A program made the position numbers and the translations under genes. This document shows, in pieces, positions 17,014 through 50,276 of a DNA stretch of 64,000 nucleotides; position 1 is the stretch's first letter, and each line of letters opens with the position of its first letter. The notes under the pieces were generated by a model, which was not told where the DNA came from, made no database searches, and saw nothing but the letters and a program-made list of their open reading frames with translations. This DNA is from Escherichia coli (GTDB lineage Bacteria > Pseudomonadota > Gammaproteobacteria > Enterobacterales > Enterobacteriaceae). Location of the stretch: NCBI RefSeq assembly GCF_003334765.1, contig NZ_QOWT01000003.1. One strand, 5' to 3'.

Positions 17014-17087
17014 GCGGGCGTAGTTCAATGGTAGAACGAGAGCTTCCCAAGCTCTATACGAGGGTTCGATTCCCTTCGCCCGCTCCA
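17014..17087 (+). tRNA. glyU: tRNA-Gly (anticodon CCC)
   Basis: 74-nt sequence GCGGGCGTAGTTCAATGGTAGAACGAGAGCTTCCCAAGCTC...CGCCCGCTCCA with 7-bp acceptor stem, CCC anticodon in loop CUUCCCAAG, T-loop GGTTCGATTCC, encoded CCA end. Confidence 0.95.
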
Positions 17088-17200: not shown

Positions 17201-18853
17201 GTGGTTATCTACGCTTTTAACAAACGATTGATGGAATATTTTATGAAAGGGAAATCTGCATTAACTCTTCTGCTCGCTGGTATATTTTCGTGCGGCACAT
17301 GCCAGGCGACAGGGGCAGAAGTGACGAGTGAATCTGTATTTAACATTCTTAATTCCACGGGGGCAGCAACAGATAAAAGTTATTTATCGTTAAATCCAGA
17401 TAAGTATCCTAATTATCGTCTTCTGATTCACTCAGCCAAATTACAAAATGAAATAAAGAGCCACTATACCAAAGACGAAATTCAAGGATTGCTAACATTA
17501 ACAGAAAACACACGAAAGTTAACGTTGACGGAGAAACCCTGGGGAACGTTTATTCTTGCTTCTACTTTCGAAGATGACAAAACAGCGGCAGAAACCCACT
17601 ATGATGCTGTCTGGTTGAGGGATAGTTTATGGGGCTATATGGCATTAGTATCAGATCAGGGAAATAGTGTAGCCGCAAAAAAGGTTCTGCTCACCCTGTG
17701 GGATTATATGTCTACGCCCGACCAGATTAAGCGGATGCAGGACGTCATTAGCAACCCAAAACGACTGGATGGAATTCCCGTGCAAATGAATGCTGTGCAT
17801 ATCCGATTTGACAGCAACTCCCCCGTGATGGCAGATGTGCAGGAAGAAGGCAAGCCGCAGCTGTGGAACCATAAACAAAATGATGCTTTAGGTCTTTACC
17901 TTGATCTCCTTATACAAGCAATCAACACTGGTACTATTAACGCTGAAGATTGGCAAAAAGGTGACCGATTAAAGTCGGTTGCGCTGCTGATTGCTTATCT
18001 GGATAAAGCCAATTTCTATGTTATGGAAGATTCCTGAGCATGGGAAGAAGATGCCCGATTAAACACATCTTCCGTTGCACTGGTGACCTCTGGACTGGAA
18101 CGTTTGTCAAACCTACTCTCGAAGAAAGACTCTGTTTTTGTCTCTGATTTACTACGCGAAGCTAAAGTCAATGAACTGGATGAAACTCTTTCAACAACGA
18201 GGTTGAACCACCTCATAGATAAAGGTTATGAAAGAATAACGTTACAGCTTGATTTAGGGGGAGAATCCCCAGGTTATCTGGAAAAAGATAAACATTACAG
18301 AGAAGCCGATGCGGCTTTACTTAATGTTATTTATCCTACAAATCTTTCAAAGATAAACACCAGAAGAAAAGAGCAAGTTCTAAAAATAGTTAAAAAACTA
18401 GCAGGTCCGTATGGTATAAAAAGATACGAGAAGGATAATTATCAGTCGGCAAATTTTTGGTTCAATGATATTAAAACCGATACCGATCAAAATTCGCATG
18501 CAAAAAGAGAAAAGAGCTTCATTCCATCAACAGAAGCAGAATGGTTTTTTGACTCATGGTATGCAAAATCAGCAGCAATTGTTTATAAAGAATCAAGAAA
18601 AGAAGAGTATTTGAATGACTCAGTACAATTTATGAATAGATCATTGGCCCAAATAACAGGCGAGAATATGATTGGTGCAAATGGCAGGAGCGTACCAGAA
18701 ATGGCACTTCCCGAAAGCTATAACTATATCCACAAGTCGGGAACTTTGCATGAAGCGCCAAGCCCTATCATTCCGCTAAATTGGTCGAAAGCTTCAATGA
18801 CTCTCATGTTGAAAGAGATGTCCAACCTTATCAATGATGAGGGAATTAAATAG
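17201..18853 (+). pseudogene. ygeQ: glycoside hydrolase family 15-like lipoprotein, interrupted by in-frame TGA (ygeQ-like)
   Basis: Two ORFs (17201..18037, 18083..18853) in the same frame separated by a single TGA at 18035..18037; GH15-like WEE...NTSS motif immediately after the stop; N-terminal signal/lipobox-like segment. Confidence 0.75.
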
Positions 18854-18984
18854 TTTTCATAATGAGTTACAGCACAACGTTGGGTATTGACTGAGCAAGA
18901 TGAACGACAAGGACAACGACATCAGCCTTATGAGGAGCAAGAAAATGAAAGCAAATTCGAAAACGATCAGAAGGATGAAAGTTA

Positions 18985-19932
18985 ATGTTCGGTCTGAGGA
19001 CAGTAAATCGAAACACTCATACGTTTGAAACCACTTTTCAAAATTGGAAAGAAAATGGCGAAGATGTTGCATTATTAATGCCCGAATTTAGTGCTAAATG
19101 GCTACCGATAGCAGAAGAGAGTGGCAGCTGGTCTGGATGGGTATTGCTTGGAGAAATATTTCCCTTAATTTCATCTGAGCTCGCTGGGATGGCTTTAATG
19201 CCAGAAACGGAAAGGTTAATAGGGGAATGCCTCAGTTTATCCAGTTCCCCGTTAAATCTAAAGCATCCTGAACTAAAATATAATCGTTTGCGCGTAGGTA
19301 AAGTATTTGATGGAGTATTGAGCCCTGCTCAACCACTAATAAGAATATGGACAGGGGAATTGAATCTTTGGTTAGATAAAGTCACAGTCTGCCAATACGG
19401 AAACGCTCCAGCGTTAGACAAAAAATCGTTATATTGCTCCATTCATTTTGTAATTGGATTTAGTAAAACATGTTACAGAAGTCTTGTTGATATTGAAGTT
19501 GGTGATGTTTTATTAATCTCAAATAATTTGGCTTATGCGGTTGTTTATAATACAAAAATTTGTGATTTAATTTATCCAGAGGAGTTAAAAATGGCTGATC
19601 ATTTTGAGTACGAGGAAGATTTTGAAACAGATGATTTTGATATCAAAAAAAACGAGAGTGAGATTTATGATGAAAATGACGATCAGATGATTAATAGTTT
19701 TGAAGACTTGCCTGTAAAAATTGAGTTTGTTCTTGGTAAGAAAATAATGAATCTATATGAAATAGACGAACTCTGTGCAAAAAGAATAATATCTCTGCTT
19801 TCTGAATCTGAGAAAAATATAGAAATACGTGTAAATGGCGCGCTAACTGGCTATGGCGAACTTGTTGAAGTGGATGATAAATTGGGCGTAGAGATTCATT
19901 CTTGGTTATCAGGGCATAATAATGTCAAATAG
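18985..19932 (+). CDS. epaO: T3SS cytoplasmic sorting platform/C-ring protein (SctQ; SpaO/YscQ family)
   Basis: 315 aa; C-terminal SpoA-like region (VKIEFVLGKK...EIRVNGALTGYGELVEVDDKLGVEI); acidic linker; immediately precedes the sctRSTU homologs. Confidence 0.8.
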   Translation: MFGLRTVNRNTHTFETTFQNWKENGEDVALLMPEFSAKWLPIAEESGSWSGWVLLGEIFPLISSELAGMALMPETERLIGECLSLSSSPLNLKHPELKYNRLRVGKVFDGVLSPAQPLIRIWTGELNLWLDKVTVCQYGNAPALDKKSLYCSIHFVIGFSKTCYRSLVDIEVGDVLLISNNLAYAVVYNTKICDLIYPEELKMADHFEYEEDFETDDFDIKKNESEIYDENDDQMINSFEDLPVKIEFVLGKKIMNLYEIDELCAKRIISLLSESEKNIEIRVNGALTGYGELVEVDDKLGVEIHSWLSGHNNVK

Positions 19933-45314: not shown

Positions 45315-46346
45315 TTAGTCGCTGGTTGCATGATGACTTGCCTCCAGCGACGGAGTTGACACTGAATGACGACGTACCAGCGTCGGACTAAAGACATTAG
45401 TGATTTCCGGGAGAGGGCGATTATCCGCCAGCGCCAAAGCCAGTTCGGCAGCCTGGGTCGCCATCGTCACGATTGGGTAACGCACGGTGGTCAGGCGCGG
45501 ACGCACATAGCGTGACACCAGCACATCATCAAAGCCAATTAACGAAATCTCACCCGGTACATCAATACCATTATCATTGAGAACGCCCATCGCACCCGCC
45601 GCCATTGAATCGTTATAACAGGCTACCGCAGTGAAATTTCTTCCTCGTCCCAAAAGCTCGGTCATTGCCTGTTCGCCGCCGCTTTCGTCTGGTTCGCCAA
45701 ATGTCACCAGCCGGTCATTGGCCGCAATACCACTTTCAGCAAGGGCATCGTAATACCCTTGCAGACGATCTTCGGCGTCAGAAATAGAGTGGTTAGAGCA
45801 CAGATAACCAATGCGGGTATGACCTTGCTGAATTAAATGACGCGTTGCCAGCCAGGCACCGTAACGATCGTCCAGAGCAATACAACGGTTTTCAAAGCCA
45901 GGCAGGATACGGTTGATCAGCACCATACCGGGCATTTGTTTCATTAATGAGGCTAAATCAGCATCCGGGATCATTTTGGCATGGACGACCAACGCAGCAC
46001 AGCGATGGCGGATCAGTTGCTCAATGGCCTGACGCTCTTTTTGTTCGTTGTGGTAACCGTTGCCAATCAATAAAAAATTACCGGTGTGATAAGCCACCTG
46101 TTCGACCGCTTTCACCATTGCACCGAAAAACGGATCGGAAACATCACCAACGACCAGACCGACCGTTTCAGTGGTCTGCTGCGCCAGCGCACGGGCGTTG
46201 GCGTTCGGGTGATAGCTAAGAGACTCCATTGCACTATGCACAGCCAGCCGGGAAGCTTCGCTGGCTTTGGGTGAATTATTAATGACGCGGGAAACGGTGG
46301 CGACTGAAACGCCTGCCAGTCGGGCTACATCCTTTATGGTCGCCAT
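45315..46346 (-). CDS. galR: galactose operon repressor (LacI family)
   Basis: 343 aa; N-terminal LacI-type HTH (MATIKDVARLAGVSVATVSRVIN). Confidence 0.95.
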   Translation of the reverse strand: MATIKDVARLAGVSVATVSRVINNSPKASEASRLAVHSAMESLSYHPNANARALAQQTTETVGLVVGDVSDPFFGAMVKAVEQVAYHTGNFLLIGNGYHNEQKERQAIEQLIRHRCAALVVHAKMIPDADLASLMKQMPGMVLINRILPGFENRCIALDDRYGAWLATRHLIQQGHTRIGYLCSNHSISDAEDRLQGYYDALAESGIAANDRLVTFGEPDESGGEQAMTELLGRGRNFTAVACYNDSMAAGAMGVLNDNGIDVPGEISLIGFDDVLVSRYVRPRLTTVRYPIVTMATQAAELALALADNRPLPEITNVFSPTLVRRHSVSTPSLEASHHATSD

Positions 46347-46559
46347 GAAAATACCTTAGTGGGTAAACGCTTACATTCTTTCAGTGTTACGGAAAACGCC
46401 CGTTGGTTCAAGGGGTGGCGTGTTTTCATCGTGGGAATGTGAGCCAAACGCAAATAAGTAAGACAAAAAAAGAGATTGCAAACCTTTGGTTACACTTTGC
46501 GAAACGCTGTTGCGATTGACCGCTGGTGGCGTTTGGCTTCAGGTTGCTAAAGTGGTGAT

Positions 46560-46641
46560 CCCAGAGGTATTGATAGGTGAAGTCAACTTCGGGTTGAGCA
46601 CATGAATTACACCAGCCTGCGCAGATGCGCAGGTTTTTTTT
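46560..46641 (+). ncRNA. omrB: small regulatory RNA OmrB (RygB)
   Basis: 82-nt unit from CCCAGAGGTATTGAT to the terminator hairpin cctgcgcagatgcgcagg plus T8; shares 5' and 3' ends with the adjacent copy; galR-aas intergenic location. Confidence 0.88.
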
Positions 46642-46755
46642 GCCGGTCATCAATCTGTAACAGTAACCGACAATTTACACACCTCGTTGCATTTCCCTTC
46701 ATTCCTTTGCGTTTTCTCGCTGGCGAAGAGTCGTCGTGCAGACCACAATCAAGAT

Positions 46756-46843
46756 CCCAGAGGTATTGATTGGTGAGATTATTCGGTACGCTCTTCGTAC
46801 CCTGTCTCTTGCACCAACCTGCGCGGATGCGCAGGTTTTTTTT
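46756..46843 (+). ncRNA. omrA: small regulatory RNA OmrA (RygA)
   Basis: 88-nt unit with the same conserved 5' end and terminator hairpin cctgcgcggatgcgcagg plus T8; tandem with omrB. Confidence 0.88.
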
Positions 46844-46909
46844 CGCACCTAATTTACTGTCGCTCGCGTTCTTTATCTCGTGTAATCTCCCTCCATTCGC
46901 TTTTACTGA

Positions 46910-50276
<3,367 letters not shown>

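Follow-up and report, generated by a model that had tools for sequence, protein, structure and literature searches.

The textbook Hfq-dependent regulators OmrA and OmrB tie the EnvZ-OmpR envelope and osmolarity sensor to the expression of outer-membrane proteins, iron-uptake systems, curli and flagella. Like the duplicated sets GlmY/GlmZ, Qrr1-5, RyhB/IsrE and SdsN of enterobacteria or Vibrio, they are paralogous small RNAs (sRNAs) that share a seed and a terminator and are expressed from separate promoters integrating different signals. OmrA and OmrB, however, are encoded next to each other on one strand and have essentially the same seed and targets, whereas GlmY and GlmZ act hierarchically and the Qrr genes are dispersed. 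MicF, which depends on OmpR, and the sigma-E-dependent RybB and MicA resemble OmrA/OmrB in that they depend on Hfq and direct a 5'-end seed against the initiation regions of outer-membrane protein mRNAs. The sequences of these RNAs are nevertheless unrelated to those of OmrA/OmrB, their regulators are different, and only OmrA/OmrB feed back on ompR-envZ. The parallel between RybB and OmrA/OmrB has been pointed out previously (PMC2588501).

We analyzed a window of 64,000 nucleotides (nt) of Escherichia coli DNA in which, judging from the sequence, the region between galR and aas is virtually certain to encompass two neighboring genes, each transcribed on its own, that encode the paralogous Hfq-binding sRNAs OmrB and OmrA. 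The omrB gene (82-nt OmrB, formerly RygB) occupies positions 46560-46641 and the omrA gene (88-nt OmrA, formerly RygA) positions 46756-46843, both on the plus strand. The two units, with these lengths and on one strand, had been proposed in a first-pass annotation of the raw sequence; the 196 bp given there as the distance between them holds from start to start, and the gap between the end of omrB and the start of omrA is 114 bp. Searching the entire window with Rfam 15 yielded three matches above the gathering score, two of which are to RF00079 (OmrA-B, gathering score 40 bits). These two matches score 86.1 bits for omrB and 96.6 bits for omrA, with covariance-model E-values of 1e-15 to 1e-18, and span model positions 1-87 of 87, that is, neither unit is truncated. 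Furthermore, unit 1 is identical to the curated K-12 omrB (b4445) at all 82 positions and unit 2 to the curated K-12 omrA (b4444) at all 88. The identification as OmrB followed by OmrA, for which the first-pass annotation had suggested a covariance-model search as a check, is thus borne out.

The flanking genes place the pair where it had been predicted to lie. On the left, galR (45315-46346, minus strand) is divergent from the sRNA genes and matches the NF008002 GalR equivalog model with 734.5 bits; on the right, aas (46931-49090, plus strand) is codirectional with the sRNAs and matches the NF005959 equivalog model with 1527 bits. Both assignments agree with the RefSeq annotation. The aas start codon is located 88 nt past the end of omrA, and LysA and LplT lie beyond the GalR and Aas flanks. 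In the K-12 reference genome NC_000913.3, omrA (b4444; 2976102-2976189) and omrB (b4445; 2976304-2976385) are both on the minus strand, between aas and galR; the window reads in the direction opposite to the K-12 numbering, with the gene order unchanged. Because galR is divergent and aas starts downstream, the two plus-strand terminators described below end no coding gene and, therefore, must belong to short transcripts initiated within the intergenic region.

Compared with OmrA/OmrB of E. coli K-12 (RF00079), the locus has the same sequence, order, strand, 196-bp start spacing, flanks and promoter determinants, and there is no difference within the sRNA locus. Thus, the omrB-omrA pair of this window is the canonical, already characterized E. 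coli locus, with nothing new to it. Family membership, identity to the type genes, synteny, structure and covariation, promoter determinants and complementarity to ompR were computed here; transcription, dependence on Hfq and RNase E, control by OmpR, RpoS and RstA, and pairing in vivo are known from the literature on the same sequence. The importance of the result lies solely in correct annotation, namely, in the presence of intact, canonical copies of both regulators in the window. In the sampled E. coli RefSeq records annotated by PGAP, there is no feature at omrA or omrB, and the curated NC_000913.3 alone names both. Given that the PGAP records list nothing at this position, recovery of the pair from raw sequence represents the correct behavior of the scan.

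The two RNAs are alike at their ends and dissimilar in the center, as originally noticed. In the pairwise alignment, which had been proposed as a further check, 59 of the 88 columns are identical overall, with 20 identities among the first 21 nt and 32 among the last 35 nt. The first 15 nt, CCCAGAGGTATTGAT, are common to both units, and a search of the 64-kb window that tolerates two mismatches recovers this 15-mer nowhere else (0.14 sites expected). The 26-nt terminator pattern, with three mismatches allowed, likewise occurs at only two sites (0.00 expected). This two-unit repeat is far beyond chance. The terminator scan identified Rho-independent terminators at 46614-46641 in omrB (stem 46616-46622/46627-46633, loop AGAT, T8 46634-46641) and at 46816-46843 in omrA (stem 46818-46824/46829-46835, loop GGAT, T8 46836-46843), both on the plus strand. 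In both copies, the stem is CCTGCGC/GCGCAGG followed by T8. The first-pass annotation described the terminator hairpins as identical, which is accurate for the stems and the T8 tails; a single base distinguishes the loops. Two positions ahead of the stem, OmrB has G and OmrA has A.

Both RNAs show the Rfam architecture, in which an unpaired 5' end is followed by an outer GGUG/CACC helix, a central hairpin specific to each copy, the terminator hairpin and U8, and both fold more stably than shuffled sequences (z = -2.9 and -2.7). The seed, or target-pairing region, comprises nt 1-21, at 46560-46580 in OmrB and 46756-46776 in OmrA (plus strand), and the RF00079 5' end CCCAGAGGUAUUGAU, which is unpaired in the Rfam consensus, coincides with nt 1-15 of both units. 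The mean probability that nt 1-15 are unpaired is 0.84 for OmrA and 0.52 for OmrB, and in the minimum-free-energy fold of OmrB, nt 7-9 and 12-15 are partly paired. In silico, the accessibility of the OmrB seed thus appears less clear-cut than that of OmrA. The OmrB-specific central hairpin, seen in the minimum-free-energy fold, maps to 46583-46597 (plus strand); it is kept in nine upstream-type copies from Enterobacterales, with changes on both sides at two pairs. The OmrA-specific central hairpin GGTACGCTCTTCGTACC (46785-46801, plus strand) is supported by the fold and by the consensus of 11 downstream-type copies, in which the closing pair is GC, AU or GU.

The two genes are expected to be controlled by separate promoters. 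A scan of 46300-47000 for the sigma-70 consensus detected no promoter, an outcome that is to be expected where promoters are weak, rely on an activator and have poor -35 elements, and for a -12C promoter, and that we did not count against transcription. The -10 elements were placed by hand relative to the 5' ends of the sRNAs and checked against the published positions. The -10 hexamer of PomrB is TAAAGT (-12 to -7; 46548-46553, plus strand), with -12T at 46548 and the transcription start site at 46560, and the pattern TA.A.T is conserved in 11 species. The -10 hexamer of PomrA is CACAAT (46744-46749, plus strand), with -12C at 46744; CCACAAT is conserved in nine of the 11 species, the exceptions being Enterobacter sp. 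Bisph1, with CGACAAT, and Serratia grimesii, which differs. The -12T of omrB versus the -12C of omrA is the basis for the use of sigma-70 versus sigma-S, respectively (PMC12692685).

Cross-species alignments of the region from -120 to +5 reveal distinct conserved blocks for each promoter. Upstream of omrB, the CTTACACTTTGC block (46483-46501, plus strand), which is conserved in 11 species, corresponds to the published box B2, the region of the OmpR and RstA consensus. Two bases of PomrB with a known role, T-75 and A-68, are both present in the window, as T46485 and A46492. Changing them (T-75C/A-68G) reduces OmpR activation from 81-fold to 3.3-fold, and mutation of T-75/A-68 abolishes the effect of multicopy RstA (PMC13425233). 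Their match to T46485 and A46492 provides independent confirmation that the 5' end is at 46560. A second PomrB block, GCTGTTGCGATTG (-54 to -42; 46506-46518, plus strand), is near-invariant across the 11 species and is probably the published box B1. Within 46347-46520, roughly 140 bp separate the galR start codon from the conserved OmpR/RstA box, so that the promoter of the divergent galR must share this short region with the upstream activating sequences of omrB.

In PomrA, the cross-species alignment shows three conserved upstream blocks on the plus strand, TGTAACAG (46656-46663), GTTGCATTT (46686-46694; GTTGCAYTT) and TCATTCCTTTGCGTTTTC (46699-46716). OmpR-P activates both promoters directly in vitro, and PomrA cut to -60 loses this activation, that is, DNA upstream of -60 is needed (PMC5175337). 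The presence of conserved PomrA blocks upstream of -60 is consistent with this requirement. When the two promoters are aligned with each other, short common motifs become apparent, GTTRCA..TT and TTGCG.TT..C.CGCTGG, which fits a scenario in which the duplication took in the promoter and the two copies later diverged. Taken at the level of sequence determinants, which are present for both genes, the promoters in the window can be predicted to depend on OmpR, with sigma-S acting on omrA only, the regulation itself having been described for these promoters previously (PMC5175337, PMC12692685).

The target side of the system was addressed with the ompR translation initiation region taken from NC_000913.3, using RNAduplex and 1000 dinucleotide-shuffled targets. 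In the predicted duplex, nt 1-9 of the sRNA pair with CCUUUGGGA at ompR positions -17 to -9, overlapping the Shine-Dalgarno sequence. For OmrB, the duplex has dG of -19.0 kcal/mol, with two of the 1000 shuffled targets scoring as well (z = -3.6); for OmrA, dG is -16.9 kcal/mol, with 11 of 1000 as good (z = -2.6). The predicted pairing between the seed and ompR matches the published mechanism. Specifically, compensatory mutations demonstrate that the conserved 5' end base-pairs with ompT and cirA close to their ribosome-binding sites, control by OmrA/OmrB needs Hfq and RNase E, and ompR-envZ is a direct target, resulting in negative feedback (PMC2588501). The initial expectation that target pairing resides in the conserved 5' end is demonstrated by these experiments, which include mutagenesis of the seed, and agrees with the RNAduplex test. 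The terminator hairpin with its U8 tail is compatible with Hfq binding. Copy-specific roles include pairing of the OmrA central region with btuB, the control of omrA by sigma-S and that of omrB by RstA (PMC13425233, PMC12692685).

Together, these features outline how the locus would operate. Each of the two genes would be transcribed from its own promoter upon activation by OmpR, the response regulator of EnvZ-OmpR, with PomrA additionally dependent on sigma-S through its -12C and PomrB responsive to multicopy RstA. Transcription would end at the Rho-independent terminator of each gene, where the U-tail and the hairpin would form the usual Hfq-binding module. The 5' ends, which are single-stranded and nearly identical, would then form imperfect duplexes with the translation initiation regions of numerous mRNAs, including ompT, cirA, fecA, fepA, csgD, flhDC and ompR-envZ itself. 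Such pairing would block ribosome binding, often triggering RNase E-dependent decay, and in the case of ompR would close a negative feedback loop on the activator of the sRNAs. The divergent central parts would account for copy-specific targets, for example, that of OmrA on btuB.

Within E. coli, the locus is nearly universal. The 586-bp galR-aas intergenic region was found in 5,424 of the 5,426 complete genomes, the other two giving no match at all to this region. At a coverage of at least 80%, 5,414 of these 5,426 genomes contain the omrB unit together with its promoter and 5,407 contain the omrA unit, so that each unit is found in more than 99.6% of them. About 10-20 genomes show truncated matches; for example, in H30, the match is confined to the initial 111 nt of the omrB query, and in H40, to the transcribed part of omrA. 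The truncated and absent matches could stem from infrequent natural deletions or insertions affecting the locus. One E. coli plasmid record contains a copy of the galR-aas intergenic region.

Relatives of the pair were gathered from one-genome-per-species contigs using the 15-nt seed, and Rfam was run on 20 Enterobacterales loci, which added 30 further RF00079 matches. The seed scan covered 298 Gb of genomes, of which only the Enterobacterales loci were used. Across the 298 Gb, the seed matched mostly as isolated single sites in unrelated phyla, and we set these aside as presumed chance matches, about 550 of which are expected by arithmetic alone (298e9 x 2 / 4^15). One of the 20 loci was too short to score; among the 19 scorable ones, nine contain a tandem pair with the starts 195-201 bp apart and eight carry a lone copy; the spacing is 275 bp in the pair of Serratia grimesii and 2,042 bp between the two copies of Pantoea stewartii. 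A published survey agrees with this distribution (PMC13425233).

Some of these loci have peculiarities of their own. In S. grimesii (L044), both Omr copies have similar, longer central regions. In P. stewartii (L027, 2747-4879), the two RF00079 copies flank a gene for a 579-aa FtsI/PBP3-like protein, which scores 687 bits against NF011685, below the 737-bit cutoff, and is probably a paralogue. The downstream copy is still located directly upstream of aas, and galR is replaced as the upstream neighbor by a gene for a BisC/TorA-family molybdopterin reductase. Two different contigs of Edwardsiella hoshinae (L089 and L090) contain the 15-nt seed, and these seed matches might correspond to unlinked Omr copies.

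The alignment used for covariation comprised 31 copies, 27 of them distinct, and the outer helix and the terminator were scored. In this alignment, nt 1-15 are invariant by construction, the copies having been collected with an exact seed, and this invariance is not evidence of conservation. Over the outer helix and the terminator, 96% of the cells are paired in the 27 distinct sequences, compared to 17-54% when the partners are slid, and the covariation score was reached by none of 500 shuffles. The terminator stands out, with 100% of the cells paired and three pairs changed on both sides: CCTGCGC is replaced by CCTACGC, CCCACGC or CCTGCGT, each time with the matching change in the partner strand. 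The GGUG/CACC helix is invariant across the 27 distinct sequences and, hence, uninformative for covariation. The central hairpins are kept within each copy type, with some compensatory changes.

These observations bear on several other readings of the region, the least improbable of which supplements the established function and does not replace it. On the strength of synteny, there is a slim chance that the placement of omrA upstream of aas has an added function in cis beside the known role in trans; such an effect could arise if the omrA terminator were read through in a regulated manner, or by promoter occlusion. If present, this cis function would couple envelope-stress signaling to the aas-lplT lysophospholipid-recycling operon. 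A more radical version, in which both units are cis-acting leader or attenuator elements that tune aas-lplT by termination or read-through of transcripts initiated between galR and aas and do not act in trans, we consider to be highly improbable. Both terminators are indeed on the aas strand, with that of omrA ending 88 nt before the aas start codon, and the downstream copy of P. stewartii stays immediately upstream of aas even though the copies have been separated. The terminators, however, are strong, with seven G+C-rich pairs and T8, and the most conserved part of the units is the 5' seed rather than any aas-proximal element. Moreover, RNAs identical to these act in trans on unlinked targets, as established by compensatory mutations (PMC2588501).

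It is less plausible still, to the point of being nearly negligible, that the region encodes a small protein. A plus-strand open reading frame of 55 aa (46602-46769) exists mechanically, with its ATG inside unit 1, but this ATG is lost even in Citrobacter, where CACATGAAT is replaced by CACTAGAAT or CACAAAATT. The frame also crosses the terminator hairpin and the T8 tract into the next promoter, and conservation tracks the RNA helices rather than codons. Given that the ATG is not conserved, we rejected the coding reading. Finally, although hairpin-bearing intergenic repeats are common in E. coli, the probability that the two units are a chance or selfish repeat of the REP type that lacks a transcript of its own is vanishingly small, this reading being excluded by the copy number (just two in the 64-kb window), by the synteny of the position across genera and by the covariance-model scores already cited, as well as by the conserved dedicated promoter of each copy. 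The reading as two genes for trans-acting sRNAs, OmrB and OmrA, is the one that we adopt.

Elsewhere, the window differs from K-12-like records in that it contains a fuller remnant of a type III secretion island of the ETT2 type beside a tRNA-Gly gene; K-12 is not known to carry most of this island, and if it indeed lacks it, the window would derive from a non-K-12 E. coli. The tRNA-Gly(CCC) gene, at 17014-17087, is followed by the degraded island at about 17243-32400, with genes for YscQ, EscR/S/T/U, PrgH/EprH, EscJ, OrgA and the HilA-like YgeH. In strain BS74R-D, the first 25 kb of which are 100% identical to the window, several of the island genes are annotated as frameshifted or partial. 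Positions 30727-30732 of the window are the junction of an IS2 insertion that splits ygeH in BS74R-D; the window itself carries no IS2 at this site. The two alignment blocks overlap by 6 bp, at 30727-30732, which is consistent with a target-site duplication.
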